Origin: Tagaea sp.
Lineage (GTDB): Bacteria; Pseudomonadota; Alphaproteobacteria; CACIAM-22H2
Direction of reading: 5' to 3'
DNA: 64,000 nt
NCBI GenBank assembly: GCA_965228135.1
Contig: OZ245798.1
Span: 139,496-203,495, forward strand
Below, piece after piece: positions 24,895 to 55,085 of the stretch. The notes under the pieces were generated by a model. The model did not search any database. It had not been told where the DNA came from and was given only the letters and a program-made list of their open reading frames with translations. Both the position numbers and the translations under genes were made by a program. Positions within the stretch are counted from its first letter, which is position 1, and each line of letters begins with the position of its first letter.

Positions 24895-25287
24895 GGAAAA
24901 ACTATAACGGCGCCCGCGCGTCGGACCGGATGATAAATTTTCGGGGATCCATTCGAATTGGCTGCCCCCAGCGTTTAGGAAAACTAACAAACGCCTTTAT
25001 GGACTCTAATTAAGCCGATGATTTTACTGGTTTAACGGTATCTTTTTCGGCGTATGTACAGGCCGGAGCCGTTTTGATTATGTTGCATCGCAACGTATAA
25101 CTCGCGGAAATAAAACGATAAATAGCCGCTGCCCAAAGCGTCGGCAGCTTGACAGGTGAGCGGTTCGAATTTACCCATTAGAGCATCGCGGGGATTCTCC
25201 GAAAGCCTTCGGAAAAAGACACGGAAAATCCGCCGCCGGCGTCCCTCGTTGAGGGCTAGCGAACGAAAAGGGAGCTCGACCCTTCAT

Positions 25288-28200
25288 ATGAATATGCAGC
25301 TTTCCAGGCGCGCTTTCCTGGGGAGGACCGGTGCTGGTATCGCCGGAACCGCCCTCGGTGCGCTCGGCTTCGGAGAGGTGGAGTCTGCTTACGCGCAGGC
25401 CGTCCGCCCCTTCAAGCTCGCGCGCACCACGGAGACGCGCAACACCTGCACCTACTGCTCGGTAGCGTGCGGGATCATCATGTATTCGATGGGCGACGGC
25501 TCCAAAAACGCCAAGTCGGCCGTCATTCATATCGAAGGCGACCCCGACCATCCGGTCAATCGCGGCACGTTGTGCCCGAAGGGTGCCGCCCTTCTCGATT
25601 ACGTCCATTCGGAAACGCGTCTCAAATATCCGATGTACCGGAAGCCCGGCTCGGACAAGTTCGAGCGCGTGACCTGGGACTTCGCGCTGGATCGCATCGC
25701 GAGCCTGATGAAGGCGGACCGCGACGCCAACTTCATCGAGAAGAACAACGACGGCCAGACCGTGAACCGGTGGACGACCACCGGCTTCCTGGCCGCTTCC
25801 GCAACGACGAACGAAACGGCGTTCGCGACCTACAAGGTCGTGCGCAGTTCCGGCATGGTGGTGTTCGACAACCAAGCGCGCGTTTGACACGGTCCTACGG
25901 TGTCCAGTTTGGGCCCAACATTTGGCCGTGGCGCGATGACGAATGGTTGGAACGATATCAAGAACACCGATCTCGTCGTAATCATGGGCGGTAACGCCGC
26001 CGAGGCTCACCCGTGCGGTTTCAAATGGGTGACCGAGGCGAAGGCGCACCGCGGTGCGAAGCTCGTCGTCGTCGATCCGCGTTTCACGCGCTCGGCGTCG
26101 GTGGCCGACTATTACGCGCCGATCCGCCAGGGAACCGACATCGCGTTCCTGATGGGCGTGATCAACTACTGCATCCAGAACGACAAGGTGCAGTGGGACT
26201 ACGTCAAGGCGTTCACGAACGCGTCGTATGTCGTGAAGGAAGGGTTCGAGTATTCGGACGGCCTGTTCACGGGCTACGACGAATCGCGGCGCGACTACAA
26301 CCGTTCGACTTGGGACTACGAGTTCGGGGCGGACGGTTTCGCGGTCGTCGACGAGACGCTGCAGAACCCGCGCTGCGTGTGGAACCTGCTCAAGAAGCAT
26401 GTCGCGACCTATACGCCCGAGATGGTCGAGCGTATTTGCGGCACGCCGAAGGACAAGTTCGTCACCGTCGCGAAGATGATCTCGGAGACGTCGGCCAAAG
26501 ATAAGGTCATGACGTCGATGTACGCGCTCGGCTGGACCCAGCACTCGAAGGGGTCCCAGAACATCCGCGGCATGGCCATGCTGCAGCTGATTCTGGGCAA
26601 CATCGGCGTGCGCGGGGGCGGCATGAACGCGCTTCGCGGCCACTCGAACATCCAAGGTCTGACCGATATCGGTCTGATGTCGAACCTGATTCCGGGCTAT
26701 CTCACGCTGCCCACGGATCGCGAGGCCGACATCAATTCCTATATGTCGACCCGCGGGTTCAAGCCCCAGCGACCGGGGCAGATGAGCTTCTGGCAGAACT
26801 ACAAGAAGTTCTTCGTGTCCTTCCAGAAGTCGATGTTCGGCGCCGCGGCGACCAAGGACAACGACTTCGCCTACGACTACCTGCCCAAGCTCGACGTGCC
26901 GTCCTACGACGTGCTGCGCGCGTTCGAGTTGATGCACCAGGGCAAGATGAACGGGTATTTCTGCCAGGGCTTCAACCCGCTGATGTCCTTCCCGAACAAG
27001 CGGAAGCTCACGGCGGCGTTGTCCAAGCTGAAATTCCTGGTTGTCTTCGATCCGTTGGAAACCGAAACGGCGCGGTTCTGGGAGAACCACGGCGAGTTCA
27101 ACGACGTCAATCCGGCGTCGATCCAGACGGAAGTGATCCAGCTGCCGACCACCTGCTTCGCCGAGGACGAAGGGTCGCTGACCAATTCGTCGCGGTGGCT
27201 GCAGTGGCACTGGCCCGCGGCGGAGCCGCCGGGCGAGGCCAAGACGGACATCTGGATCATGGCCCAGCTGCATCTGAAGCTGAAGGCGCTGTACAAGAAG
27301 GACGGGGGCAAGTTCCCCGACCCGATCGTCAACCTGCACTGGCCCTACCGCCTGCCGAACGATCCGCAGCCGGAGGAAATCGCGCGCGAACTCAACGGCT
27401 ATGTCGTCGAGAACGTGCCCGATCCGAACGACGCGACGAAGCTCGTCCTCGAAAAGGGCAAGCAGGTTCCGACGTTCGGCGTCCTTCGCGACGACGGAAC
27501 GACGGCGTGCGGCTGCTGGATCTACGCGGGCTGCTTCACCGAGGCCGGCAATATGATGGCCCGGCGCGGCACGGCCGATCCCGGCGAAACGGGCGCCTAT
27601 TCGAATTGGGCGTTCTCGTGGCCGGCGAACCGTCGGATCCTCTACAACCGCGCTTCGGCGGACATCAACGGCAAGCCGTGGGATGAAAGCCGCAAGCTGA
27701 TCTGGTGGAACGGCACGAATTGGGGCGGTTTCGACATCCCCGACATCGCGCCGACGGCCAAGCCCCAGGATGTGGGCCCGTTCATCATGAATCCGGAAGG
27801 CGTTTCGCGCCTGTTCACCCGGGGCATGATGCGCGAAGGCCCGTTCCCGGTGCACTACGAGCCGTTCGAATCCCCGATCGCCAATCCGATCGCCCCGAAG
27901 ATCCAGGGCAATCCGGTGGCGCGCGTGTTCCGCGGGGATATGGAACAGTTCGGCGATTCGAAGGAGTTCCCGTACGCGGCGACCTCCTATCGTCTCACCG
28001 AGCATTTCCACTTCTGGACCAAACACGTCTGGGTCAACGCCGTCCTGCAGCCCGAATTCTTCGTCGAGATCTCGGAAGAGCTCGCGAAGGAAAAGAAGAT
28101 CGCGTCGGGCGGTTGGGTGCGCGTGTGGTCCAAACGCGGGTCCGTGAAGGCGAAGGCCGTGGTCACGAAACGCATCCGTCCGCTCGTCTGCGACGGGAAG

Positions 28201-28368
28201 ACGGTGCATATCGTGGGCATTCCCATTCACTGGGGCTTCACGGGTGCGACGAAGAAGGGGTTCGGCGCGAATATGCTGACTCCCTTCGTGGGCGACGCGA
28301 ACATCGAAACGCCGGAATACAAGGCGTTCCTTGTCGACGTCGAACCCATCGCCGGCGCTCAGGTCTAA
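25288..28368 (+). CDS. fdnG: Formate dehydrogenase-N alpha subunit, selenocysteine-containing (UGA at 25885-25887), Tat-exported
   Basis: Two in-frame ORFs join as DNQARV-U-HGPTV; SRRAFL Tat motif; CTYCSVAC...CPKG Fe-S motif; [10 protein letters not shown]. Confidence 0.95.
25888..25930 (+). promoter_or_regulatory. Bacterial SECIS element
   Basis: Directly 3' of the UGA; apical hairpin GTCCA-GTT-TGGGC (25902-25914) placed like the E. coli fdnG SECIS; unusual codons for this gene (AGT, TTG, ACA, TTT). Confidence 0.75.
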
Positions 28369-28381
28369 GGGAGGGAAGATC

Positions 28382-29284
28382 ATGGCATCGCTTCAATCCC
28401 AGGACATCGTCCGCCGCTCGGCCACGACGTTCACCCCGCCCGCGGCACGCCACCAGATCAAGGTCGCCAAGCTCATCGATGTATCCAAATGCATCGGGTG
28501 CAAGGCGTGCCAGGCGGCGTGCCTCGAATGGAACAATCTGCGCGAAGACGTCGGCGTCAACGTGGGGCAGTATCAAAACCCCCACGATCTGACCGCCAAC
28601 TCCTGGACGCTGATGCGTTTCACGGAATGGGTGAACCCGGAAACCGACAACCTCGAATGGCTGATCCGCAAGGACGGCTGCATGCACTGCGAGGATCCGG
28701 GCTGCCTCAAAGCCTGCCCCTCGCCGGGCGCCATCGTTCAGTACTCGAACGGAATCGTCGATTTCGTTTCCGAGAACTGCATCGGTTGCGGCTACTGCAT
28801 CAAGGGCTGCCCGTTCAACATCCCGCGCATCTCGAAAACCGACAGCAAGGCGTATAAGTGCACGCTTTGCGTCGATCGCGTGTCCGTCGGTCAGGCGCCG
28901 GCTTGCGCCAAATCCTGCCCGACGCAGGCGATCGTGTTCGGCACCAAGGAAGCGATGCTCGAACACGCCGCCGGTCGCGTGACCGATCTCAAGTCGCGCG
29001 GCTACAAGAACGCGGGCATCTACGACCCGCCGGGTGTGGGCGGCACGCATGTGCTGTACGTGCTGCATCACGTCGACAAGCCGCAGATTTACGCGAACCT
29101 GCCCAACAATCCGGCGATCAGCCCGATCGTCGGCTTGTGGAAGGGGACCGTGAAATATGCCGGCATGGCAGCGCTCGGCCTGATGGCCGTGTTCGGGTTC
29201 ATGCACCACGTCGTCGCCGGACCCAACGAGGTCTCGGAAGAGGACGAGGAGAACGCGAAGAAGTTGAAGGATGCCGCCGAATGA
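28382..29284 (+). CDS. fdnH: Formate dehydrogenase-N beta (Fe-S) subunit
   Basis: [23 protein letters not shown] and KCTLC motifs; C-terminal TM; GGGAGGG RBS. Confidence 0.95.
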
Positions 29285-29940
29285 GCACGACCCATAACGA
29301 GAAATCGTCGACGGTCCAACGCTACTCGGCGGCCGCACGGGTGAATCACTGGATTACGGCGGGGAGCCTCGTGCTCCTCGCCATTTCCGGCCTCGCCTTG
29401 TTTCATCCCAGCCTGTTTTTCCTGACCGCCTTCTTCGGCGGCGGGGAAACCACGCGCGCGCTCCATCCGTGGATCGGCGTCGTGTTGTTCTTCAGCTTCC
29501 TCGGGTTGTTCTTCCGCTTCTGGCGCGCGAATCTCTGGAACCGCACCGATAACGTGTGGATGTCCAAGCTTCGCGACGTGCTGGCGGGCAACGAAGAGAA
29601 CATGCCCGAGATCGGCAAGTACAACGCCGGTCAGAAGCTGGTGTTCTGGTTCATGTCGGCGCTGATCTTGATCCTGATCACCAGCGGCGTCGTGGTGTGG
29701 GACGAGTATTTCTATCAATACACGTCGATCGACCAGAAGCGTTACGCCATCCTGGTCCACTCGCTGGGGGCGATCGCCGCCATCTCGGTCTGGATCGTCC
29801 ATGTTTATGCGGCGATCTGGGTCAAGGGCACGATCCGCGCGATGACGCGCGGCTCGGTGACCGGCGGTTGGGCGTGGCGCCACCATCGCAAATGGTTGCG
29901 CGAATTGGTGGCCGGCAAGGCGACGGGCGCGGGCAAGTAG
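29281..29940 (+). CDS. fdnI: Formate dehydrogenase gamma subunit (cytochrome b556)
   Basis: [25 protein letters not shown] and WAWRHH motifs. Confidence 0.93.
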
Positions 29941-30016
29941 AAAAATCCCGCACACGCGCTAGTATGGTATGCGTACGGGTTCCCCGGTTCCGGGGACCCG
30001 AAATCGAGGGCTCGAA

Positions 30017-30934
30017 ATGGCGAAAGGCGGCAATCCTCTTCACGATTCGGTACCGATCGGGGAGGAGGCAAAACCGCCTTTCGCGATACTGCCGGACCCG
30101 GCGGCGATGTTCGCCGCCCGGGCCGCGCGGTTCCGGGCCTTGGCGGACGGGCACGAGCTCGGACCCTATCTTCTCTTCCTCGCCGGCATCGCCGACATCC
30201 AGAACGCCCTGATCGGCGATCTGCCCGCAGTCGCGCGTCCGTCCGCCGAGGCGTTGGAACGCGCCGCATCGTTCGGCATGCCGCCGCTGGACCGCAACGC
30301 GTTCGCCTATGACGAGACCTTCAAGGCGACTTTCGCCAAGCTGCTGGCCGCATCGGCAGCACTCGACATGCCGCAGGCCGCGCGCGACGCGCTGGATCGG
30401 CTGGCCGCCGCCGACGATGCGCGGCGCGAAGAACTCGCCCGCGCCATGCTGGCCGATTCCGCCGAGGTCGAATTCCTCGCCGATCACATTTTCGTCGCGG
30501 CCGCGTTGCAGGTGCATTTGGCGCGCCTGGCCGCCACACTCGACGCCGACAAGCTGGTCGAAATCGGCCCCGGCGCTTGCCCGTCCTGCGGCGGGCCGCC
30601 GGTTTCCACGATGGTCGTCGGCTGGGTCGGTTCGCATGGCAGCCGCTTCTGCGTATGCGCGCATTGCGCGACCAAGTGGAACTATGTCCGCATCAAGTGC
30701 ACGCTGTGCGGCGAGACCAAGGGCATCGAGTATCACGAGGTCGATGGCTCGGGCGGCGCGGTGAAAGCCGAATCTTGCGCGTCGTGCGGCGGCTATGTGA
30801 AGGCGCTGCAACAGATCAAGCATCACGACGTCGATCCGGTCGCCGACGACGTGGCCTCGCTCGCCCTCGACATCTTGATGCGCGAAGAAGGCCGACGACG
30901 CGGTGCCGTGAACCCCTACCTGTTCGGCTACTGA
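30017..30934 (+). CDS. fdhE: Formate dehydrogenase accessory protein FdhE
   Basis: CPSCG, CAHC, CTLC and CASC motifs; ADDVASLALD; NPYL. Confidence 0.92.
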   Translation: MAKGGNPLHDSVPIGEEAKPPFAILPDPAAMFAARAARFRALADGHELGPYLLFLAGIADIQNALIGDLPAVARPSAEALERAASFGMPPLDRNAFAYDETFKATFAKLLAASAALDMPQAARDALDRLAAADDARREELARAMLADSAEVEFLADHIFVAAALQVHLARLAATLDADKLVEIGPGACPSCGGPPVSTMVVGWVGSHGSRFCVCAHCATKWNYVRIKCTLCGETKGIEYHEVDGSGGAVKAESCASCGGYVKALQQIKHHDVDPVADDVASLALDILMREEGRRRGAVNPYLFGY

Positions 30935-30935
30935 C

Positions 30936-32315
30936 ATGGCCCCCGAGGACACCGGCATTTCCCCCCGACGCCGGCTTCCGTCGGTGGACGAGGCGCTGAA
31001 AGCGCCCGAGGCGGCCACGGCACTCGCCAAGCACGGGCGCACGGCGCTGGTCGATGCGTTGCGCGCCGCCATCGCCGAATTCCGCGCGAAGGGTGCAGGC
31101 GCTTCGGCGGCCGAGGCCGCGACTGCCGCTTCGGCGCTGCTCGACAAAGCCGACCGGCCGCGTTTGCGCGCGGTCCATAACCTCACCGGCACGATCCTGC
31201 ACACCAATCTCGGCCGCGCGTTGCTGGCCGAAGCGGCGATCGAAGCGGCGGCGAACGCGATGCGCTCGGCCGTGGCGCTCGAATACGATCTTTCGACCGG
31301 CAAGCGCGGCGAGCGCGACGATATCGTGCGCGATCTCCTGTGCAAACTCACGGGGGCGGAAGACGCCACCGTCGTCAACAACAACGCCGCCGCCGTGTTG
31401 CTCTGCCTCAACGCCGTCGGTGCGGGCAAGGAGACGATCGTCTCGCGCGGCGAGTTGATCGAGATCGGCGGCGCCTTCCGCATGCCCGATATCATGGCGC
31501 GCGCGGGCACGACCTTGGTCGAAATCGGCACGACCAACCGCACGCATGCGAAGGATTACGCGGGCGCCATCGGCGAGCGCACGGCGCTGCTGATGAAGGT
31601 GCATACGTCGAATTACCGCATCCAAGGATTCGTCAAGGAAGTGCCCCCGCGCGAAGTGGCGGAGATCGCGCATGCGCGCGGTCTACCGATGCTCAACGAT
31701 TTGGGCTCCGGTACGCTGATCGATCTCGACGGCTATGGCCTCGCGCACGAGCCGACGGTGGCCGAGGCGGTCGCGGAAGGGGCGGATCTCGTCACCTTCT
31801 CCGGCGACAAATTGCTCGGCGGGCCGCAGACCGGCTTCATCGTCGGGACCAAGGCGCTGCTCGAGAAGATCAATCGCAACCCGATGAAGCGCGCCTTGCG
31901 CGTCGATAAAATGCGTCTCGCGGCGCTGGAAGCGACGCTGCGGCTTTATCTCAATCCCGAGAAACTCGCCGAACGCCTGCCGACATTGCGCTTGATCGCA
32001 CGGCCGGTGGCGGAGATCGCGGCCGTTGCCGCGCGCATCGCTGGGCCGATCGGCAATGTGCTGGGACCGCGCTTCGCCGTCTCGGTCATCGAATGCGAAA
32101 GCCAGGTCGGCTCGGGCGCCATGCCGCTCTCGGTGCTGAAAAGCGCGGGGCTCGCGATCAAGGGCCGTCCGCTCGATGCGCTCGCCACGGCCTTGCGCGA
32201 ATTGCCGGTCCCCGTGATCGGCCGATTGGAAGACGGCGCGCTGGTGCTCGATTGCCGGTGCCTGGAGGACGAGCCCGCGTTCCTCGCCAATTTCGCGAAG
32301 CTCGCTTTGCCATGA
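30936..32315 (+). CDS. selA: L-seryl-tRNA(Sec) selenium transferase
   Basis: NLTGTILHTNLGRA, VNNNAAA, EIGGAFR and FSGDKLLGGPQ (PLP lysine). Confidence 0.96.
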   Translation: MAPEDTGISPRRRLPSVDEALKAPEAATALAKHGRTALVDALRAAIAEFRAKGAGASAAEAATAASALLDKADRPRLRAVHNLTGTILHTNLGRALLAEAAIEAAANAMRSAVALEYDLSTGKRGERDDIVRDLLCKLTGAEDATVVNNNAAAVLLCLNAVGAGKETIVSRGELIEIGGAFRMPDIMARAGTTLVEIGTTNRTHAKDYAGAIGERTALLMKVHTSNYRIQGFVKEVPPREVAEIAHARGLPMLNDLGSGTLIDLDGYGLAHEPTVAEAVAEGADLVTFSGDKLLGGPQTGFIVGTKALLEKINRNPMKRALRVDKMRLAALEATLRLYLNPEKLAERLPTLRLIARPVAEIAAVAARIAGPIGNVLGPRFAVSVIECESQVGSGAMPLSVLKSAGLAIKGRPLDALATALRELPVPVIGRLEDGALVLDCRCLEDEPAFLANFAKLALP

Positions 32316-33016
32316 GTGCCGCAATCGACATTCAGGCGGAGATGGCGCGCGCGCGCGACGCCGCCGACCGCGAGGATTATCAGGCCGCGCTCGCGATCTG
32401 GGGGCCGCTCGCGCATGCCGGTGTGGCGCGCGCCCAGAACAATATCGGCGCTTGTTTCGCCGAAGGTATGGGCGTCGAGCGCGACGGCGATCTCGCGCGC
32501 AAATGGCTGGAACTCTCGGCGGCGGCCGGCGATCCGATCGGCCAGCGCAATCTCGCGACGCTGCTGTTCCGGGGCGAGCTCGTGCCCATCGACGTGGCGC
32601 AGGCCGCCGATCTCTACCGCAAATCGGCCGAGGCGGGCGATGCGCTCGCCCAGGACATGCTGTCCTGGCTGCTGCTCGAAGGCGAAGATCTGCCGACCGA
32701 TCCGGCCGAAGCCTTGCGCTGGGCGAAGAAAGCGGCCGAGCAGGGCGTTGCCTCGGCGATGACGCGCATCGGCATGATCCATCATAATGCCTTGGGGGTT
32801 CCGCGCGATCCGCGCGAAGCGGCGCATTGGTGGCGCGAAGCCGCTTTGCGCAACGATGCCGACGGGCAGGCGATGTACGGCGCCGCACTTCATCTTGGCG
32901 CGGGCGTCCAGCGCGATCCCGCCGAAGCTTTGGCGTGGCTCACGCGCGCCGCCGCCAATGGCAGCAAGCTCGCCGAGCCGTTCCTGCCGGCCGCGCAAGC
33001 GGCGGTGACGCCATGA
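32312..33016 (+). CDS. Sel1-like repeat (SLR/TPR) protein
   Basis: About five repeats of AQxxLG...GxGVxRD...A..W...AA; overlaps the selA stop and the selB start. Confidence 0.88.
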   Translation: MSAAIDIQAEMARARDAADREDYQAALAIWGPLAHAGVARAQNNIGACFAEGMGVERDGDLARKWLELSAAAGDPIGQRNLATLLFRGELVPIDVAQAADLYRKSAEAGDALAQDMLSWLLLEGEDLPTDPAEALRWAKKAAEQGVASAMTRIGMIHHNALGVPRDPREAAHWWREAALRNDADGQAMYGAALHLGAGVQRDPAEALAWLTRAAANGSKLAEPFLPAAQAAVTP

Positions 33017-35091
33017 TCGTCGGCACCGCCGGGCATATCGATCACGGAAAAACCTCGCTGGTGCGTACGCTCACCGGTGTCGATACCGACCGTCTCAAGG
33101 AAGAAAAGACGCGCGGCATTTCGATCGAGCTCGGCTTCGCCTATTTGCCCGCACCCGACGGGCAAATCGTCGGCTTCGTCGACGTGCCCGGCCACGAGAA
33201 GCTCGTCCATACGATGCTGGCGGGGGCGAGCGGCATCGATTTCGTCGTGCTGGTTATCGCGGCCGATGACGGCATCATGCCGCAAACGCGCGAACATCTC
33301 GCCATCGTCGAGTTGCTCGGTATCAAGCGCGGTCTGGTCGCGTTGACCAAGATCGACGCTGTCGCCGAGGATCGTGTGGCCGAGGTCACGCGCGAGATCG
33401 AGAATGCGCTGGCCGATACGTTGCTCGCGGGGGCGCCGATTTATCCCGTGTCGTCGATCACCGGGCAGGGGATCGATGAATTGAAGGCGGCGCTGTTCGC
33501 GGCGTCGGCCGCGGTCCCGCGCCGGCCCGATGACGGGCGATTCCGCTTGGCGGTCGATCGTTGCTTCGCGCTGGCGGGTGCTGGCACGGTCGTGACCGGC
33601 ACGGTCCTATCGGGGCGCGTCAAAATCGGCGACGCGGTCGTCGTTAGCCCCTCGGGGCTGTCCGCGCGCGTGCGCTCGATCCATGCCCAGAACCGCGCAG
33701 CGGAGGAAGGCCGTGCGGGCGATCGCTGCGCGCTCGGTCTGACGGGCGCCGATATTTCCAAAGACGCGATATCGCGGGGCGATGTGGTGCTCGACGGCGT
33801 GTTGCATGCGCCGACCGAGCGCATCGACGCCGAATTGACCGTGATGCGCGGCGAGCCCAAACCCGTCGGCCAATGGATGCCGGTGCGCCTGCATCACGCC
33901 TCGGTCTCGGTGCCCGCGCGCATCGTGCTGCTCGACGACGACGACGTGGCGCCGGGCAAGACGGCGCATGTGCAGATCGTGCTCGAAGCGAAGATCGCCG
34001 CCGCCGTGGGCGATCGGTTCGTCATCCGCGACGTGTCGGCGCAGCGCACGATCGGCGGCGGGCGCTTCCTCGATCTGCGCGCCCCGGCCCGCAAGCGCCG
34101 CACGCCCGAACGCCGCGCGCAGCTCGACGCGTTGTCGCTCGCCGATCCCGACAAGGCGCTCGCGGCCCTGCTGGAATTGCCGCCGTTCAACGTCGATTTC
34201 ATCGCTTTCGCGCGCGACCGCGTTCTCGCGGCCGACCATGCCGACGCGATCGTCCGGAACCTGGGCGTCGTCCGCTTCGCGGCGTCGGGCGGCGAGATCG
34301 CGATCTCCGCACCGAATTGGACCAAGCTGCGCGAGGATATCCGCCGCGCGCTCGAGACCTATCACAAGGACAATCCCGATCTACCGGGGATCGGGCTCGA
34401 ACGTCTGCGCTTGCAGATGGAGATCAAACTCGCCGCTCCCTTCTTCCTGACGGCTTTGCGCGCGATGGCGAAGGCGGGCGAGATTTCGCTCGATGGCGCT
34501 TGGGTGCGCTTGGCGACCCATGAAGGCAAGCTGACCGCGAGCGACGAAAAGCTTTGGGCATTGATGGCGCCCTTGCTCACCGGCACGGAGCGTTTCCGCC
34601 CGCCGCGTGTGCGCGACATCGCCGGGCTGTTGATCGTCCAGGAAACCGAAGTGCGCCGTTTGCTGAAATTGCTCGGCCGCATGGGCAAAGTCGACGAGGT
34701 CGCGCACGACCATTTCTTCCCGCGCGAGACCGTGGCGGAGATGGTCGATATCTGCGTCGATATCGCGGCCAAGGCCAAGGACGCGAATTTCACCGCCGCG
34801 CAATTGCGCGACCGGCTCGACAACGGCCGCAAGGTCGCGATTCAGATCCTCGAATTCTTCGACCGGCACGGCGTTACCCTGCGCAAGGGCGATTTGCGCC
34901 GTCCCAACCCGCATCGGCTTGATCTGTTCCGCAAGCTGGGGCAAGAAGAAGGCAAGTCCAACGTGCTTAAAATCGGAAGAGACTCGTCCCCGGTGGGGCG
35001 TCCGGGCTTCAAACCCGGGTGGGGCCGCGAGCCGGTCCTAGGTGGGTTCGACTCCCATTCTCTTCCGCCAACTTCCCGGGGTGCTCGATGA
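33013..35091 (+). CDS. selB: Selenocysteine-specific elongation factor SelB, with a C-terminal extension read through tRNA-Sec
   Basis: GTAGHIDHGKT, DVPGHE and TKID motifs; winged-helix GRKVAIQILEFFDR; frame stays open through the tRNA to TGA 35089-35091. Confidence 0.95.
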   Translation: MIVGTAGHIDHGKTSLVRTLTGVDTDRLKEEKTRGISIELGFAYLPAPDGQIVGFVDVPGHEKLVHTMLAGASGIDFVVLVIAADDGIMPQTREHLAIVELLGIKRGLVALTKIDAVAEDRVAEVTREIENALADTLLAGAPIYPVSSITGQGIDELKAALFAASAAVPRRPDDGRFRLAVDRCFALAGAGTVVTGTVLSGRVKIGDAVVVSPSGLSARVRSIHAQNRAAEEGRAGDRCALGLTGADISKDAISRGDVVLDGVLHAPTERIDAELTVMRGEPKPVGQWMPVRLHHASVSVPARIVLLDDDDVAPGKTAHVQIVLEAKIAAAVGDRFVIRDVSAQRTIGGGRFLDLRAPARKRRTPERRAQLDALSLADPDKALAALLELPPFNVDFIAFARDRVLAADHADAIVRNLGVVRFAASGGEIAISAPNWTKLREDIRRALETYHKDNPDLPGIGLERLRLQMEIKLAAPFFLTALRAMAKAGEISLDGAWVRLATHEGKLTASDEKLWALMAPLLTGTERFRPPRVRDIAGLLIVQETEVRRLLKLLGRMGKVDEVAHDHFFPRETVAEMVDICVDIAAKAKDANFTAAQLRDRLDNGRKVAIQILEFFDRHGVTLRKGDLRRPNPHRLDLFRKLGQEEGKSNVLKIGRDSSPVGRPGFKPGWGREPVLGGFDSHSLPPTSRGAR
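34975..35070 (+). tRNA. selC: tRNA-Sec (anticodon UCA), nested in the selB CDS
   Basis: 8-bp acceptor stem GGAAGAGA/TCTCTTCC; 6-bp D stem; anticodon loop CTTCAAA (TCA at 35009-35011); long variable arm; T loop TTCGACT; GCCA end. Confidence 0.95.
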
Positions 35092-35516
35092 GCGCGTATC
35101 TCCCCGCTTTGCGACAAGCGGCCGAAGCGGCGTCGAAAGCCGAAGACGCCTATCGGCGCGAAGCGGCGGCGAAGATCGCCGCCCTCGAAACCGCGCGCAG
35201 CCACGCGTTCCGCCGCCTCAATCTGATGACCCGCATCACCGATGTGGTTCGCGCGGTCGAACGCGACGATCAGGCGGGCGAGAGCGCGCGCCTGTCGCTC
35301 GCCGATCGCTTGGATTGGGCGCCGAACGCGACCGGCGGGCGCAAGGAAGCGCTCGACGCTTTCGTGCCGGTCGCGCAAGCTTTGCGCGTGGACGACGACG
35401 ACGCGACCCAAGCCGAACTCGCCAAGTTCGAGGCGTGGTACGAAACGCGCTTCGGCTCGTCGTTCTGGGAATTATTCGCGAACAACATGCCGGAGACGCC
35501 GCGTGTCGACTACTAA
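35088..35516 (+). CDS. Hypothetical helical protein (sel operon)
   Basis: ATG overlaps the selB TGA; protein-like composition; ends FWELFANNMPETPRVDY. Confidence 0.75.
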   Translation: MSAYLPALRQAAEAASKAEDAYRREAAAKIAALETARSHAFRRLNLMTRITDVVRAVERDDQAGESARLSLADRLDWAPNATGGRKEALDAFVPVAQALRVDDDDATQAELAKFEAWYETRFGSSFWELFANNMPETPRVDY

Positions 35517-35895
35517 GGCGAAATCCAAGGCCAACGATTTCGAAGCCTGGATCAAGCGGGAGTTCGCCGAAACGGGCGAGTTCACCGCGCTGATCGTGCT
35601 GGTCGATATCGACGCCAAGGCGGTGACGCCGTTGTGCTCGACCTATTTCAACGTCATCGGCGACGAGATCGAGTGGAACGATATCGTCGTGATGTTCGCC
35701 GGTGCGGGGGCCGATTGGACCGGTGCTTCGTTCTTCCCCGTGACCGCGCGCGACGACGGCGGCTGTCTCGACAATCCGACCGCGCGCTTGCAGCTGCGCG
35801 CACTCGAGATGCGCGTCGACGAGGATCGCCTCGTGCTCAACGAAGGCAATTTCTTCGACAAATGGGGACGGCGCCTCAAGATCGAGGAAGAATGA
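35503..35895 (+). CDS. Hypothetical protein (sel operon)
   Basis: GTG start with GGAG upstream; overlaps both neighbours; alpha/beta pattern. Confidence 0.75.
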   Translation: MSTTKAKSKANDFEAWIKREFAETGEFTALIVLVDIDAKAVTPLCSTYFNVIGDEIEWNDIVVMFAGAGADWTGASFFPVTARDDGGCLDNPTARLQLRALEMRVDEDRLVLNEGNFFDKWGRRLKIEEE

Positions 35896-36602
35896 TGCGC
35901 GCGCGTTTGCGCATCGTCGATACCGGTGTGCGCGTATCGCGCTGGAATGTCGCGGCGAGCGCGGCCCTCGCCGAATACGGCGGCGAAGGGTTGCTGCGCT
36001 TCCATCGTTATGTGCCCTGCGTGCTGCTCGGCAACGGTCAGAAATTCGCCGAGGCGGCGCGCAAGGGCCCGTGGGAAATCGCGCGCCGTGTGACCGGCGG
36101 CGGGGCGGTCTATATGGACCCCGGCATCTTCGCCTGGGATCTGTTTGTCGACGGCCGCGATCCGAAAGCCTTCGCCGCGACCGTCGGCACCGCCATCGCC
36201 GCCGCCGTGACGCGACTGGGCGCACCCGCCGCGTATGTTCCGCCGCATGACGTGCGCGTGGGCGGGGAGAAGATCTCCGGCTCCAGCGGTCTTGTTTCCG
36301 GTTCGCGTTTGATGCTGCAAGGCACGCTGGTCGCCACGCTCGATCGCGAAGCCTTCGCCAAAAGCCTGGTGATGCCCGGTCCGGTGCGCGTGGCGTCGCT
36401 GTCCGAATTCCTGACGCCCTTGCCGCCGATGGACGCGATCATGGAAGCGGTCGCCGACGCGCTGTGCGCAAGCTTGGACAGGACGGCAGAACCCGGCGAT
36501 CTGACCGACGCCGAGAACGCGGCGATCGACGCGGCGTATCGCGGCGAGATCGGTACGGATGCATTCGTCTACGGCACGGAGGCGCCATGCGCCGCCTCCT
36601 GA
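35892..36602 (+). CDS. Lipoate-protein ligase family, catalytic domain only (LplA/LipM-like)
   Basis: RRVTGGGAVYMD and KISG motifs; about 236 aa; no C-terminal accessory domain. Confidence 0.85.
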   Translation: MMRARLRIVDTGVRVSRWNVAASAALAEYGGEGLLRFHRYVPCVLLGNGQKFAEAARKGPWEIARRVTGGGAVYMDPGIFAWDLFVDGRDPKAFAATVGTAIAAAVTRLGAPAAYVPPHDVRVGGEKISGSSGLVSGSRLMLQGTLVATLDREAFAKSLVMPGPVRVASLSEFLTPLPPMDAIMEAVADALCASLDRTAEPGDLTDAENAAIDAAYRGEIGTDAFVYGTEAPCAAS

Positions 36603-36961
36603 TCGTGTTGATGAACACCGATCCGCGCAACCCGGAAGAACTCGGCGCGCCATTCTATCACGCGTCCGTCGCCGCCGCGATGGACTACCCTGTCGATGTC
36701 GTGTGCACGGCGACCGCGGGCAAGCTGCTGTTGAAGGGGGTGGCCGAGAAACTGCGCACGCGCCCCGACAGCCCGCGCAGCGTGCTCGATTGGATCCGCG
36801 AGGCGCATGGCCACGGCGTGAAATTCTGGGCGTGCCCGGCCAATCTGGAACTATTCGGCGTCACCAAGGACGATCTGATCCCCGAATGCGAAGGCTTGAT
36901 GGGGGCCGCCGCCATGATCGAGCAGATCATGGAAGGCGACGGACGCGTATTGACGTATTAG
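36587..36961 (+). CDS. DsrE family sulfur-carrier protein
   Basis: GAPFYHASVAAAMD and GVKFWAC (conserved Cys); GGAGG RBS. Confidence 0.82.
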   Translation: MRRLLIVLMNTDPRNPEELGAPFYHASVAAAMDYPVDVVCTATAGKLLLKGVAEKLRTRPDSPRSVLDWIREAHGHGVKFWACPANLELFGVTKDDLIPECEGLMGAAAMIEQIMEGDGRVLTY

Positions 36962-36970
36962 GATCGCGCC

Positions 36971-37414
36971 ATGGCGACGATCGACGGCATCGAGTATCCC
37001 GAACATCTCCATTACGACGTCGATAACCAGATCTGGTACGAGGATCTGGGCGACGGCAATTTGCGCGCCGGGTTCACGCCGATTTCGATTTCGCTGGCCG
37101 GCGATGTGCTGGTCTTCACGCCCAAGCGCGTGGGCCGCGATTTCGAGAAGAACCGATCCTTCGCCACGATCGAATGCGGCAAATGGGTGGGGGCGGCGCG
37201 CGCGGCGTTTCCCGGCATCGTCGTCGCAGCCAATCCGGAACTCGACAATCGGCCCAAGTTCCTCAATCTCGACGCGTTCGGCAAAGGCTGGATGCTGATC
37301 GTCCGCCCGTCGATCCGGAATTGGCGGGACGGCCTCGTCACCGGTGCTGCGGTGCAGACCGCGTTCAAGGATTGGATCGACGCCGAAAGCTATAAGGATC
37401 GGACCGAGGGATGA
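36971..37414 (+). CDS. GcvH/LbpA-like lipoyl-carrier protein
   Basis: YPEHLHY...W, ATIECGKWVG (lipoyl-Lys71) and N..L...P..LN.D.FG.GW segments. Confidence 0.85.
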   Translation: MATIDGIEYPEHLHYDVDNQIWYEDLGDGNLRAGFTPISISLAGDVLVFTPKRVGRDFEKNRSFATIECGKWVGAARAAFPGIVVAANPELDNRPKFLNLDAFGKGWMLIVRPSIRNWRDGLVTGAAVQTAFKDWIDAESYKDRTEG

Positions 37415-39633
37415 TGGCGGGCCCCGACATCATCCGGCACGACATCGTCCTGATCGGCGGCGGCCACGCGCATGTCCAGGTCATGACCGCCTTCGGCATG
37501 GACCGGCCGGCGGGCGTGCGCTTGACGCTCGTCACCGATCGCTTGCTAACGCCCTATTCGGGCATGCTGCCCGGCCATATCGCGGGCACGTACTCGCATG
37601 ACGATGTGCATATCGATCTGTGGCGCCTCGCGCGCGCCACGGGCACACGGCTGATTCACGCGCCGGCGAGCGGGATCGATCTCGCCGAGAAGCGCGTCGT
37701 CTTCGCCGATCGCCCGACGCTGAGTTTCGACACGTTGTCGATCGATGTCGGCATCACCCCCGATGTCTCGGCCATCGCAGGGGCCGCCGAACAAGCGCTG
37801 CTGGTCAAGCCGATCTCGAATTTCCTCGAGAAATTCGAAGCGGCGCTGCGCGGAAATCCGCGCCCCAAGCGCTTCGCGATCGTCGGCGGCGGGGCGGCGG
37901 GGTTCGAGCTTGCCTGCGCCTTGAAGGCAAGGCTCGTGCGCGAAGGAATCCCGGACGCGCGAGTGGCGCTGCTCAGCGGTGCCAAGCTAATGCCCACGCT
38001 CAACACCGGCGTGCGTTTGCTGGCGCGGTTGGCGCTACGCCGCCAGGGGATCGAATTCCATGGCGGCTTCCGCGCCGTCGAGGTGACGGCGAAAGGCGTG
38101 CGTGCCGCAGACGGGCGCTTCCACGAAGCGGATTTGGCGCTCGTTTCGACCGCCGCACGCGCACCCGCTTGGCTCGCCAAGACGGGGCTGAAACTGACGC
38201 CGGACGGATCGCTCGCCATCGGCCCGACCTTGCAGGTCGAAGGCCGCGAGGATGTCTTCGCGGTCGGCGATTGCGCCACACGAGTCGACGACCCGCGCGA
38301 GAAGGCGGGCGTGTTCGCGGTGCGCCAAGGCCCGATCCTGGCGAAGAATCTCCGCGCGCGTGCGACCGGCGAAAATCTGGAAGCGCATAAGGCGCAAAAG
38401 GATTTCCTCGTCCTGCTCAACACCGGCGACGGCACGGCGATCGCCGGGCGCGGGGCGTATTTCGCCTGGGCGGGCGCGAAGCTGTGGCGTTGGAAAGATT
38501 CCATCGACCGGCGCTTCATGGCGATGTTCGCCGAGTTCGGCCGCGAGATGGCGCGGCCCGCGACGGCCGAAGAAATCGCGTCGGGCATCGCCATGCGCTG
38601 TGCGGGCTGTGCGGCCAAGATCGGCCCCGATCCGCTATCGCGCGCCTTGTCGCGTTTGCCCGCAGCGCCGGCTCCGCGCGACAAAATTTTGATCGGGCTG
38701 GGCGACGACGCGGCGGTGACAGAGATCGCGCCAGGAATCGCGCAGATCGAAACCATCGATCAGATCTCGGCGATGATCGCCGATCCCTATGTATTCGGCG
38801 AGATCGCGGCCCTCCACGCGATCAACGACGTATTGGCGATGGGCGGCGACCCGACACGCGCTTTGGCGCTGGCGACCGTGCCGCGCGGGCATCCCCGCGC
38901 CGTTGAATCCGACCTGGTCGCGTTGCTGGCGGGTGCGCGTCAAACCCTCGACGCGCAGCGCATCGCGCTGATCGGCGGCCATTCGGGCGAAGGCGAAGGG
39001 CTCGCTTTCGGCCTGTCGGTCGCCGGCCGCGTAGCGCCCGAAGCGCTCAAACCCAAGACCGGGCTTGTCGCGGGCGATGTATTGATCCTGACCAAGCCGC
39101 TTGGTGTCGGTCTTATCATGGCGGCGGATATGCGCGGCGCCGTGCATGCGAATGTCGCGACGGCCGCGATCGACGCGATGCGCCGATCCAACGCCGCGGC
39201 GTTGCCGATCCTGGGCGCGCAAGCAAATGCCATGACCGACGTGACCGGCTTCGGTCTCGCCGGGCATTTGATGGAAATGCTGCGGCCCGGCCGCTTGGAA
39301 GTGCATCTCGATCTGGGGGCGATCCCGTTGCTGCAAGGCGCCCTCGATCTCGCCAAAGCGGGCTATCGCTCGACATTGACGGCGCAAAACGCCGTGCAGG
39401 GCGGCATGCTCCGCCGCGAAGAAAACGGCGCCTTGCCCGATGCGATCGAGGAAGCCCTGTTGTTCGATCCGCAAACCTCGGGCGGATTGCTCGCCGCGGT
39501 GCCCGAAGCCATGGCCACGCAAACGCTCGCGGCGTTGCACGCCGCCGGTTACGCGCAGGCCGCGATCATCGGGCGGGTTTCGCCACGCGATACGCTCGAC
39601 GTCGCGATCTTCTGCCGCGGCGGCTTCGATTGA
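37411..39633 (+). CDS. selD: Selenophosphate synthetase with N-terminal FAD/NAD(P)-dependent oxidoreductase domain
   Basis: GGGHAH, YSGMLPG, GGGAAG and KAGVFAVR in the N-domain; MRCAGCAAK, DDAA, GGHS, TDVTGFGL and DPQTSGGLL in the SelD domain. Confidence 0.93.
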   Translation: MMAGPDIIRHDIVLIGGGHAHVQVMTAFGMDRPAGVRLTLVTDRLLTPYSGMLPGHIAGTYSHDDVHIDLWRLARATGTRLIHAPASGIDLAEKRVVFADRPTLSFDTLSIDVGITPDVSAIAGAAEQALLVKPISNFLEKFEAALRGNPRPKRFAIVGGGAAGFELACALKARLVREGIPDARVALLSGAKLMPTLNTGVRLLARLALRRQGIEFHGGFRAVEVTAKGVRAADGRFHEADLALVSTAARAPAWLAKTGLKLTPDGSLAIGPTLQVEGREDVFAVGDCATRVDDPREKAGVFAVRQGPILAKNLRARATGENLEAHKAQKDFLVLLNTGDGTAIAGRGAYFAWAGAKLWRWKDSIDRRFMAMFAEFGREMARPATAEEIASGIAMRCAGCAAKIGPDPLSRALSRLPAAPAPRDKILIGLGDDAAVTEIAPGIAQIETIDQISAMIADPYVFGEIAALHAINDVLAMGGDPTRALALATVPRGHPRAVESDLVALLAGARQTLDAQRIALIGGHSGEGEGLAFGLSVAGRVAPEALKPKTGLVAGDVLILTKPLGVGLIMAADMRGAVHANVATAAIDAMRRSNAAALPILGAQANAMTDVTGFGLAGHLMEMLRPGRLEVHLDLGAIPLLQGALDLAKAGYRSTLTAQNAVQGGMLRREENGALPDAIEEALLFDPQTSGGLLAAVPEAMATQTLAALHAAGYAQAAIIGRVSPRDTLDVAIFCRGGFD

Positions 39634-39651: not shown

Positions 39652-40758
39652 TCAGATCGGCTTCGAGGTGATCGTGTAGGCGAAGGCGTCGGGGTCGAGG
39701 CAATCCAGACGCTCGCCGGCGAGCTCGGCCTGCGGATACATCAGGAATTCGACCTTCGGCCCCTTGGACCCGGGCAGCACGACGTCATGCGCGACGTTGT
39801 AGGCGGCCCAGTTCATTTCCCATGACCCGAACAGCGCCTTGCGCGCCGAAACGACGACCGCGTTGTCGATGGCGAGCTTGCCCGGCGGCTCTTCCAGGAT
39901 CACCTTGCGCACATCGGCGGGATCGACCGGCGTCCAGCCGAAGCCGTCGAGCCACACTTCCGCGCGGCAATGCTGGGCGCGGGTGATGTTGGCCGAACCC
40001 GCCCCCAGGCTGCGATAGCCGAAGGCCGACGGCGCCACGCGCAATCCGTAAACGTCGCGCGCGGGCAGGCCCGAAGCGCGGGCGAGGCCGACATAGAGCG
40101 CGTTGAGATCGGCGCATTTGCCGGTGAGGTCGCCGATCTCCAGCATGTTCTTGATGTTGCCGATACCGCAGCCGCGCGTCGCGGCATTGCGCGCCGTATT
40201 CTCGACGATCCATTGATAGATCGCTTCGGCCTTGGCGATATCGGTCGTCTTGCCGGCGGTGATGCGATCGGCGGTCGTCTTGACGATGCCGTCGGTCGCG
40301 ATCAACTCGGTCGCCGACAGGTTCAGCGTGCGCTCCTCGGTCGTGAGCTGCGTGACGTTCGTCGGCTTGGCGAGATCGATCGCGCGATCGCGGGTCGAGA
40401 AGCGGCTGACGACGTCCACGACCGGGGCGCGTTCCGAAGGATCCCATTCGACATGCAGGAATTCGGCACCGTATTTCGCGTCCTTCTTGACCGTCATCGC
40501 CTTGGCGTTGCCCGTCCAGCTATTGCCTTCGGGGCGGAACCAATCTTGTGCGGTGAAGGTCGGCAGCGGGATCCAGGCTTGGGCCTGGCCGTTTTTGGCG
40601 TCGATTTTCAACGCCGTCGTCATTTCGAACTTGCGCCAGGCACCCGGCTTCGGGGCGAGGGCGGCCGGGCTTTGCGCGGCGGCGAAACGCGGCGCCAGCG
40701 CGCCGGCGGCCAAAGCGGACGCGCCCATCAAAAGGCCGCGGCGATCGGTCGAGATCAT
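39652..40758 (-). CDS. Tat-exported transglutaminase-like protein
   Basis: DRRGLL Tat signal; GKCADLN, QHCRAE and VDP Cys-His-Asp triad. Confidence 0.85.
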   Translation of the reverse strand: MISTDRRGLLMGASALAAGALAPRFAAAQSPAALAPKPGAWRKFEMTTALKIDAKNGQAQAWIPLPTFTAQDWFRPEGNSWTGNAKAMTVKKDAKYGAEFLHVEWDPSERAPVVDVVSRFSTRDRAIDLAKPTNVTQLTTEERTLNLSATELIATDGIVKTTADRITAGKTTDIAKAEAIYQWIVENTARNAATRGCGIGNIKNMLEIGDLTGKCADLNALYVGLARASGLPARDVYGLRVAPSAFGYRSLGAGSANITRAQHCRAEVWLDGFGWTPVDPADVRKVILEEPPGKLAIDNAVVVSARKALFGSWEMNWAAYNVAHDVVLPGSKGPKVEFLMYPQAELAGERLDCLDPDAFAYTITSKPI

Positions 40759-40976
40759 TCTCTGACTCCCGTTGTTATGGCCCAAACGGCGACGGACATC
40801 GCGCACAGCGACGTTACGCGCCGGTCTCCCGGGCCGATGATGGATGGACCGCATTTTGGCCGTTGGGGTGCGCGCACGATCGTGCGAACACCGCGCTTAT
40901 CCGTTGGGGGCGCCCCGACACGCGGGGACCGGCGGCACAATGCTACCGATAACTCTAGGTTTCGCGTCTCGCCAAG

Positions 40977-54261: not shown

Positions 54262-55085
54262 CCGGCGCATTCAAGCCCGCATATCGCGTTTCCAACGAAG
54301 TGTGGCGCGGCGATGCGCCGCGACCGGGCGCGCGCCATGTGCCCGAGGAAACCGCGATCGCTTTCAGCTACGACCGCGCCACGCATGCGGTGATGATGGC
54401 GAGCCCCGCCGATCTCGAGGATTTCGCCCTCGGCTTCTCGCTGAACGAAGGCATCGTCGCATCGCCGGCGGAAATCGAGGAAATCGAGATCCGTTCGACG
54501 GACGAAGGGATCGAGCTGCGCATGGCGCTGGCCGAGCCGCGCGCCGACGCCTTTGTCGAACGCCGCCGCTATATGGCGGGGCCGACGGGCTGCGGTCTTT
54601 GCGGCATCGACAGTTTGAAGGAAGCGACCAAGACGCCGCCGGTCGTGACCGCCGACCCGCGCATCGCGCGCGCGGATATTGCCGCCGCGATCGCGGCTTT
54701 GCCCGTTGCCCAGTCGCTGCATCGCTTGACCCATGCGGCGCATGGCGCGGCGCTGTGGGTTCGCGGCGAAGGTCTGGTCTGCATGCGCGAGGATGTCGGC
54801 CGCCACAATGCGCTCGATAAGCTCGCCGGCGCTTTGGCGTGCGAAGGCCGCCGCGCGGAAGCGGGGATCGTCGTGTTGACCAGCCGTGTGTCGGTCGAAC
54901 TCGTGCAGAAAGCGGCGATGATGGGGGCCCCCGTGCTCGTCGCCGTATCGGCGCCGACCGCCTTGGCGATCCGCACGGCCGAGGCGGCGGGGATCACGCT
55001 GATCGGCATCGCGCGCGACGACGGGTTCGAGGTGTTCACCCATGCCGCGCGCGTCGCGGAAGGGAAGGCCCGCGATGTCGCCTGA
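54258..55085 (+). CDS. fdhD: FdhD/FdsC sulfurtransferase
   Basis: GCGLCG, EDVGRHNALDK and SAPT motifs. Confidence 0.92.
   Translation: MTGAFKPAYRVSNEVWRGDAPRPGARHVPEETAIAFSYDRATHAVMMASPADLEDFALGFSLNEGIVASPAEIEEIEIRSTDEGIELRMALAEPRADAFVERRRYMAGPTGCGLCGIDSLKEATKTPPVVTADPRIARADIAAAIAALPVAQSLHRLTHAAHGAALWVRGEGLVCMREDVGRHNALDKLAGALACEGRRAEAGIVVLTSRVSVELVQKAAMMGAPVLVAVSAPTALAIRTAEAAGITLIGIARDDGFEVFTHAARVAEGKARDVA

Follow-up and report, generated by a model that had tools for sequence, protein, structure and literature searches.

The closest described relatives of the proteins discussed here belong to sulfur oxidation, where the sHdr set of the Hyphomicrobium denitrificans type comprises DsrE3C, LbpA2 and sLpl(AB), and where Cys84 of the H. 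denitrificans DsrE3C binds sulfur (Tanabe 2024). On the side of selenocysteine (Sec), a nested selC and a Sel1-like gene have already been described in Alphaproteobacteria, together with two open reading frames (ORFs), ORF1 and ORF2, to which the available portion of the article gives no function (Mukai 2021, PMC8124441); DsrE, GcvH and lipoate have no occurrence in its text. In this work we analysed a locus in which both kinds of genes stand together. It lies in a 64,000-nt stretch of Tagaea sp. DNA (contig OZ245798.1; hereafter the window, all coordinates being positions within it), where two small genes, hyp1 and hyp2, and genes for a lipoate-protein ligase, a DsrE protein and a putative lipoyl carrier of the LbpA type are inserted between selB::selC and selD in an operon for formate dehydrogenase-N (FDH-N), the fdn-sel operon. 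We call the DsrE and LbpA-like genes, with the ligase where there is one, the cassette.

Other precedents bear on parts of this arrangement. An oxidoreductase fused to SelD was earlier suggested to reduce a selenium compound on behalf of SelD (Zhang 2008, in excerpt), and YedF, which joins a SirA-like and a DsrE-like part, is a candidate selenium-metabolism protein that gene neighbourhood connects with SelD (Lin 2015, likewise in excerpt). In Roseovarius mucosus, an organism without sHdr, the accessible part of a preprint places an LbpA-like gene behind the genes of a cytoplasmic formate dehydrogenase (FDH) and fdhD (bioRxiv 10.64898/2026.10.01.755906). Selenium is not mentioned in Tanabe 2024 or in that preprint ('selen' has 0 occurrences in the latter), and no paper joining 'lipoate-binding protein' with 'selenocysteine' was found in the literature searched. 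There, LbpA, sHdr and selenium come together in one paper, on the SoxT transporter, and PMC10298544 offers no useful information on the selenotrisulfide of lipoamide.

Our data establish a strong link of the cassette to the fdn-sel operon, of which it is probably a dedicated accessory. Selenium delivery to SelD by the cassette is plausible but unproven, and is weighed below against its rivals.

Results

Five genes inserted between selB::selC and SelD

The window holds one co-directional series, fdnGHI-fdhE-selA-sel1-selB::selC-hyp1-hyp2-ligase-DsrE-LbpA-like-SelD fusion, as given by the ORF listing and the family scans (Table 1). A preliminary description of this DNA had placed five genes between selB::selC and the SelD fusion and held them to be coupled by overlapping stop and start codons; all of these features are present, and the junction coordinates it gave are exact when read from the sequence. 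ATGA stop/start overlaps stand at 35088-35091, 35892-35895 and 37411-37414. The GTG start of hyp2 at 35503 makes a 14-nt overlap with the end of hyp1, the ATG start of DsrE at 36587 makes a 16-nt overlap with the end of the ligase, and the junction between DsrE and the LbpA-like gene is a 9-nt gap (36962-36970). The selB reading frame spans the whole tRNA-Sec gene and terminates in the ATGA overlap with hyp1.

In four metatranscriptome libraries there are contigs, 90-99% alike and hence derived from relatives, that span four junctions of the cassette region (selB/selC-hyp1, ligase-DsrE, DsrE-LbpA and LbpA-SelD). This is a weak hint of expression: such contigs cannot prove a single transcript, DNA carry-over is possible, and three runs give no cover at, for example, 36027-36187. 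A promoter and terminator scan of the sequence returned counts not above those of shuffled sequence (2 vs 2.8, and 13 vs 15.1).

Linkage to sel genes across species

Scanning one genome per species with an alignment of hyp2 yielded 80 loci, in which the window proteins were then searched by tblastn. They come mostly from Hyphomicrobiales, Xanthobacteraceae and relatives, and include two Tagaea metagenome-assembled genomes (MAGs) at 91-95% identity. selB lies directly upstream of hyp2 in 69/80 loci; the upstream sequence is too short to judge in seven, and three of the four loci where selB is not directly upstream carry it elsewhere on the same contig. The search recovered hyp1 in 70 of the 80 loci, DsrE in 66 and the LbpA-like gene in 64, and 14 loci consist of hyp1-hyp2 without cassette. 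The same gene order recurring in 80 loci from other species-level genomes is more than chance would give.

An evenly drawn sample of the class (301 genomes) contained hyp2 in 3 genomes and selA in 39, and all of the hyp2-positive genomes (3/3) have selA on the same contig, about 3 kb away. A minority of sel operons have the hyp1/hyp2 module as an accessory, and in these samples it never stood apart from them. The co-occurrence of its homologues with sel genes, on which the preliminary description had staked its case, is therefore borne out both by the position of selB and by the adjoining selA. One MAG locus (L052) has hyp2-DsrE-LbpA 3 kb from SelD; selA, selB and FdnG were not found in the MAG genome behind it. 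In the MAGs behind L033 and L066 (G707, G708), selB is broken into two or three adjacent frames, for which assembly indels or pseudogenes are possible.

Relatives of the cassette in sulfur oxidation

Searches with the LbpA-like protein as query are independent of ascertainment through hyp2. Nine genomes of the class sample had an LbpA-like match, six of them in sHdr loci and three in fdn-sel clusters, and three different architectures of the cassette adjoin fdn-sel genes among the class-sample loci. A Hyphomicrobiales-type order sample of 401 genomes had 26 with a match. Seven matching genomes on short contigs were left out of the context count, which covers 20 places: 2 fdn-sel clusters, 11 sHdr loci, 5 LipS/hydrogenase clusters and 2 second copies. 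The sHdr loci run in the order DsrE, Fer4/CCG/flavoprotein genes, LbpA, ArsR regulator and Sulf_transp gene (Pfam on L113, tblastn on the others). The hydrogenase clusters (L123-L126 and L130; e.g. L124:3220-14938) are a third genomic context for the cassette. Their genes are co-directional, in the order radical-SAM, FAD protein, radical-SAM, ligase, DsrE, LbpA, HycI, HupH, and NiFe small and large subunits; a search for sHdrB1 in these five genomes found none. At another fdn-sel cluster (L137), an LbpA-like gene (L137:9010-9348) lies convergent after hyp2, without DsrE.

Our trees are quick, built on short alignments and from kin that are not independent. One branch splits the 66 sel-linked DsrE rows from other DsrE proteins (SH-aLRT 100; 89 after seven rows were added), and the 64 sel-linked LbpA-like rows form one clade (support 96 or 88), sister to the sHdr and hydrogenase types, with canonical GcvH far outside the LbpA-like tree on a branch of length about 8. 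The free tree puts the LbpA pair of L137 and L138 outside the main sel clade, and an AU test does not reject one common clade (p = 0.45). Judged from these sequences, the cassette is a derived variant, dedicated to sel/fdn, of the sHdr-type DsrE3C/LbpA/ligase set. The suggestion of a repurposed sHdr-type module was thus well placed, the sel-locus DsrE and LbpA-like proteins being clades of their own next to the sulfur-oxidation versions.

Residues and domains of the cassette proteins

An sHdr-locus protein has two adjacent cysteines, Cys83-Cys84, the second of which aligns with Cys83 of the window DsrE; the window protein has Ala in place of the first, and at least 95% of 67 rows retain the carrier cysteine. 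In the LbpA-like protein, Lys71 aligns with the lipoyl-Lys position of solved GcvH, and the lysine at this position is kept in 62/62 full-length rows. The motif flanking it is EGGKW in 40/41 ligase-free loci, and ECGKW or ESAKW in 20/23 ligase loci. Residues 50-53 of the LbpA-like protein form a basic TPKR patch typical of LbpA, the counterpart of TPRK51-54 in RmLbpA2.

The LbpA-like protein scores under both NCBIfam GcvH cut-offs (74.3 vs 117 and 45.1 vs 115.85 bits), and the genome's own canonical GcvH, with which it shares 26% identity, is encoded about 3.8 Mb away. About a thousand close relatives in public data are auto-named 'glycine cleavage H'. Non-sel relatives are 59-64% identical to the window's DsrE, 35-44% to its LbpA-like protein and 30-34% to its ligase.

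The ligase had been described as a catalytic domain only, rightly so: its C-terminal LplB-like part is missing by comparison with a 361-aa sLpl of the sHdr/hydrogenase type. The window protein (236 aa; 245 aa in L010) aligns to residues 8-260 of this relative at 33% identity. The LplB-like part (NF053749-like, residues 286-352) is in the 361-aa relative only and is absent from the sel-type proteins of 236 and 245 aa. The motifs RRxTGGGAVYM and K..G.sG are conserved in 24 rows.

Genome background

Neither sHdrA/B nor LipS/LipT was found by tblastn (E<=1e-3) in the 5.34-Mb window genome, which extends to the whole genome an absence of sHdr and LipS first noted for the window; sHdrA and sHdrB were not found in the 80 loci either. 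The window genome encodes canonical LipA and LipB; searches in it found no LplB, and no SelU scoring over the cut-off. Every module gene and SelD are single copy. The one FdhD of the genome (54339-55058) stands beside a second FDH. This second enzyme, in the 51415-55058 region, is FdsA-like, with 948 aa and no in-frame stop, and is followed by FdhD. No SirA/TusA-like gene was seen among the scanned operon genes, and TusA was not searched genome-wide.

hyp1 and hyp2

hyp1 and hyp2 are two small Alphaproteobacteria-specific proteins whose translation is coupled to that of selB. Scans against Pfam and NCBIfam gave no match for either one at E<=0.01. hyp1 is all-helical and cysteine-free (predicted model, pLDDT 90.4), and Foldseek gave no match to its fold at E<=0.001. 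hyp2 is a highly conserved alpha/beta protein (predicted model, pLDDT 79.6), for which Foldseek gave no PDB match at E<=0.001 and a wide VIA search a best Z of 4.4; missing fold matches do not prove new folds. The protein atlas returned unnamed clusters only for hyp2, its 924 homologues in public data are all unnamed, and a profile search of 1.84 billion representatives gave 151 matches at E<=0.001, all from the same small family or fragments.

Three apparent hyp2 fusions (P0337, P0408 and P0417) were read as frameshifted gene calls because of their Arg-rich out-of-frame stretches. A role of hyp2 as thiol carrier was also rejected. Its Cys45 is invariant in 18 close relatives and kept in 70-95% of 81 locus rows, but V, A, R, K, G or S replaces it in distant representatives, so that hyp2 is unlikely to be such a carrier. 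In a divergent branch of the family (P0309, P0311, P0313, P0317, P0322, P0337) it is Arg that replaces Cys45, and some gene calls run into ligase-like sequence. Neither hyp1 nor hyp2 was retained as a candidate for the missing LplB, for they have no NCBIfam or Pfam match and both occur in ligase-free loci.

hyp1 was not found at E<=1e-5 in L016, L017, L018, L025, L036, L038, L039 and L082. Most hyp1-free loci (e.g. L016, L017, L018) have a selB-hyp2 gap of about 130-230 nt, which is too short for it; in L082 the gap is about 500 nt and a diverged hyp1 is possible. hyp1 appears dispensable in some lineages, and hyp2 is the core sel-linked gene. The pair probably corresponds to ORF1/ORF2 of Mukai 2021.

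SelD and its fused domain

Cys397, Cys400 and Lys403 are invariant in eight fused SelD proteins, and the fused SelD scores below the cut-off of the TIGR04369 fusion_not_SelD family (446.7 vs 700 bits). Among the 80 loci, SelD is found within 5 kb after hyp2 in 28, on the opposite strand in 19, unfused on the same strand in 2 and fused on the same strand in 7. A fused SelD directly after the LbpA-like gene, on the same strand, is seen in seven loci and in the window. TIGR03169 exceeds its cut-off in 41/301 genomes of the class sample, most of the frames being about 740-780 aa long; in this class, SelD usually comes with the fused FAD domain. A complex prediction of the LbpA-like protein with full fused SelD scored 0.00 against a mark of 0.32, without controls, and speaks neither for nor against binding. 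The SelD-specific link is weak, weaker than the preliminary description supposed. The only other recurrent neighbour family that could be placed after SelD resembles an ABC transporter and occurs in 14 loci (named from sequence only); other clusters of neighbours resemble off-frame ORFs.

Other features of the operon

The fdnG gene appears as two same-frame ORFs (25156-25887 and 25900-28368), both halves of which are conserved in related loci, with a 3-nt gap. The tRNA-Sec is the sole tRNA that ARAGORN finds in the window. The junctions of the Sel1-repeat gene overlap both selA and selB, and off-frame ORFs mask the gene in a naive ORF list; a homologue with 47% identity also lies between selA and selB in L137. 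A transglutaminase-like gene (39652-40854, minus strand) is convergent after SelD and adjoins SelD also in the close relatives L003 and L004; a copy 59% identical lies between SelD and hyp2 in L052.

Table 1. Features of the fdn-sel operon and its insert in the window.
Feature	Position	Strand	Evidence or remark
fdnG, formate dehydrogenase-N catalytic subunit	25156..28368	+	in-frame TGA (Sec) 25885-25887
fdnH, iron-sulfur subunit	28382..29284	+	PF13247, PF09163 Form-deh_trans
fdnI, cytochrome b subunit (approximate start)	29290..29940	+	PF01292, 94.3 bits
fdhE	29969..30934	+	PF04216, PF24859, PF24860
selA	30936..32315	+	TIGR00474, 577.5 bits
Sel1-repeat protein gene, selA/selB interval	32312..33016	+	frame analysis; PF08238, 139.9 bits, 5 repeats
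selB, frame reads through selC	33016..35091	+	TIGR00475, 401.5 bits; ORF end 35091
selC, tRNA-Sec, anticodon TCA	34975..35070	+	ARAGORN; nested in selB frame
hyp1, 142 aa	35088..35516	+	no Pfam/NCBIfam match
hyp2, 130 aa	35503..35895	+	no Pfam/NCBIfam match
Lipoate-protein-ligase catalytic domain alone (sLpl-like)	35892..36602	+	only PF21948 LplA-B_cat, 84.7 bits
DsrE3C-type carrier (putative)	36587..36961	+	PF02635, PF13686
LbpA-type (GcvH-like) lipoyl-carrier protein (putative)	36971..37414	+	PF01597, 70.9 bits
Pyr_redox_2 (TIGR03169)::SelD fusion	37411..39633	+	TIGR03169, 411.9 bits (cut-off 310); selD TIGR00476, 269.3 bits (cut-off 125)

Discussion

The insert can be read as two accessory layers at the 3' end of the fdnGHI-fdhE-selA-sel1-selB::selC operon. 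The first would be made of hyp1 and hyp2, translationally coupled to selB. The second would be the cassette, presumably copied from the sulfane-sulfur relay of sHdr-type oxidation, with a truncated dedicated ligase in about a third of the lineages. The cassette probably serves to move a chalcogen atom, carried by a cysteine and by a lipoyl dithiol, and the choice of cargo between selenium and sulfur is beyond what sequence alone can settle. We prefer, tentatively, to think of the atom as selenium destined for SelD. The DsrE cysteine would bind it as Cys-S-Se(-); alternatively, the dihydrolipoyl arm would capture selenite-derived selenium as a selenotrisulfide, a chemistry that has reportedly been described for lipoamide. 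The lipoyl dithiol would then release selenide beside SelD, and the oxidised arm would be re-reduced by NAD(P)H via a flavoprotein, a part that the domain joined to SelD could play here. In this way selenide, which is scarce and sensitive to oxygen, would be provided for the sole selenium use found here, the Sec of FdnG. Taken in full, this relay from the cassette to SelD is a possibility that we would stop short of calling probable. The broader claim is doubtful, namely that a protein-bound relay, passing from a perselenide on a DsrE3C-type cysteine to a lipoyl selenotrisulfide or selenide, is the physiological selenium route to SelD in aerobic Alphaproteobacteria, with hyp2 as a new factor of the Sec pathway. 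If the relay is true, it would be the first role of lipoate in selenium metabolism.

Several observations weigh against selenium delivery to SelD. The known cargo of DsrE3C is sulfane sulfur, not selenium, and position in the operon cannot separate selenium supply from FDH maturation, since both are encoded there. SelD adjoins the cassette in 21/66 cassette loci, versus 7/14 of the loci with hyp1-hyp2 only, and 5/5 further cassette genomes have an unfused SelD, 3.5-5 kb past the fdn end of the cluster. As for the fused FAD domain, 36 of the 41 TIGR03169 genomes have no LbpA-like match at E<=1e-12, and three of the other five have the LbpA-like gene in an sHdr locus. The domain therefore cannot depend on the carrier in general. 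The ligase is present in 23/80 loci and absent from 57/80, and with the window protein as query it was not found anywhere in five genomes that have ligase-free clusters. With a ligase that is often missing and lacks the LplB-like part, in a genome where no LplB was found, lipoylation of the LbpA-like protein is predicted but unproven. Also, the sel-clade consensus lacks the LbpA-typical cysteines, which in the sHdr-type consensus lie in an N-terminal GC, in SCAT and in a C-terminal GC; the LbpAs of L137 and L138 retain them. Finally, the FDH-linked LbpA of Roseovarius mucosus and the hydrogenase-linked cassettes of five genomes mean that other clients exist. The reading given in the preliminary description is partly supported: its linkage to sel genes and the sHdr-type descent stand, and its specific link to SelD is weakened.

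The preliminary description had named sulfur supply for FdnG as its alternative, and this stays a near-equal rival, although taken by itself we consider it rather unlikely. A DsrE3C persulfide and the lipoyl protein would feed or repair the terminal sulfido ligand of the Mo-bisPGD in FdnG, upstream of FdhD or beside it. The LbpA-like gene that the accessible part of the preprint reports behind a cytoplasmic FDH and cofactor-sulfuration genes, in an organism without sHdr, fits this well. So does the proven ability of DsrE3C to carry sulfane sulfur, as do the inconsistent adjacency to SelD and the content of the operon, which has fdhE and not fdhD, the only FdhD standing beside the second FDH. 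One locus (L138) has a DsrE-LbpA pair (L138:8914-9712) divergent from fdnG and without hyp1/hyp2, which points to fdnG. However, in 64/80 loci the cassette is at the sel end, behind selB::selC and hyp2, and not beside fdnGHI-fdhE, and FdhD is already available in the genome. In L052 a cassette is kept near SelD in a MAG where FdnG was not found, and we know of no lipoyl protein with a role in cofactor sulfuration.

It is improbable that the cassette serves redox protection or repair, with the lipoyl protein as a dithiol reductant, as for Ohr/OsmC peroxidases, that in these aerobes keeps oxygen-sensitive Sec, SelD thiols or FDH intermediates reduced, and DsrE as its thiol partner. GcvH-like lipoyl proteins are indeed discussed as OsmC electron donors in the available part of the preprint, related cassettes adjoin an oxygen-sensitive NiFe hydrogenase, and the gene after the carrier in the window encodes a pyridine-nucleotide oxidoreductase domain; but the operon has no peroxidase gene, and the active-site cysteine of DsrE, together with the descent from a sulfur relay, indicates atom transfer over electron transfer alone. 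Still less probable is that these are passenger genes, inserted at the operon end and kept through co-regulation with lithotrophic functions, and not directly involved in the synthesis of Sec or FDH. Genes are easily inserted at operon ends, 14/80 loci lack the cassette and the ligase has often been lost, all of which would suit passengers. Against this, the cassette is a clade of its own across 64-66 species-level genomes with its functional residues kept, its genes overlap at their start and stop codons, no other client such as sHdr exists in the window genome, and the three architectures, different as they are, all adjoin fdn-sel clusters.

The way in which selenium reaches SelD in vivo, safe from an excess of sulfur, is still unsettled. 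This locus offers a defined and conserved set of candidates that are genetically separable: one carrier cysteine, one lipoyl lysine, one ligase and two proteins without family. The cassette is carried by dozens of cultivable soil Alphaproteobacteria in which one enzyme is the only selenium use detected, which makes the question directly testable. If selenium is indeed relayed to SelD, we would have a concrete answer as to its in vivo selenium donor. If the cargo is sulfur for the FDH cofactor, the LbpA/DsrE3C relay would be extended from sulfur oxidation to the maturation of metalloenzymes, which would also explain the related cassettes at other formate dehydrogenases and at a hydrogenase.

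Comparison with described systems

hyp1 and hyp2 share with ORF1/ORF2 of Mukai 2021 (PMC8124441), as described in the portion of that article available, the position after a nested selC, a start codon overlapping the selB stop and an occurrence limited to Alphaproteobacteria. These features, compared by description and not by sequence, fit loci with hyp2 alone after selB too. YedF has a DsrE fold as well, but it is a two-domain protein with a CGXC motif, whereas the window protein is of the single-domain DsrE3C type. The window SelD passes both the TIGR03169 and the selD cut-offs, and so belongs with the described fusions of an NADH oxidoreductase (COG1252) to SelD; unlike most fusions of the class (36/41), which come without an LbpA-like gene, it is translationally coupled to a putative lipoyl-carrier gene.

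With the H protein of glycine cleavage, the LbpA-like protein shares the fold family (PF01597) and the position of the lipoyl lysine, but it stays below the GcvH cut-offs, at 26% identity and across a very long branch. The case of R. mucosus differs in having a full sLpl-LipS1/LipS2 pathway and an FDH of the cytoplasmic type, according to the accessible part of its source; the window has an FDH-N and no LipS. The nearest described counterpart is therefore the sHdr set of the H. denitrificans type. The window departs from it in that its genome has neither sHdr nor LipS1/LipS2/LipT, its ligase has no LplB-like part, the main sel clade lacks both the LbpA-typical cysteines and the cysteine next to Cys83 of DsrE, and the cassette sits in an fdn-sel operon. 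What the two have in common is the same three protein types, with the carrier cysteine, the lipoyl lysine and the TPKR patch shared between them.

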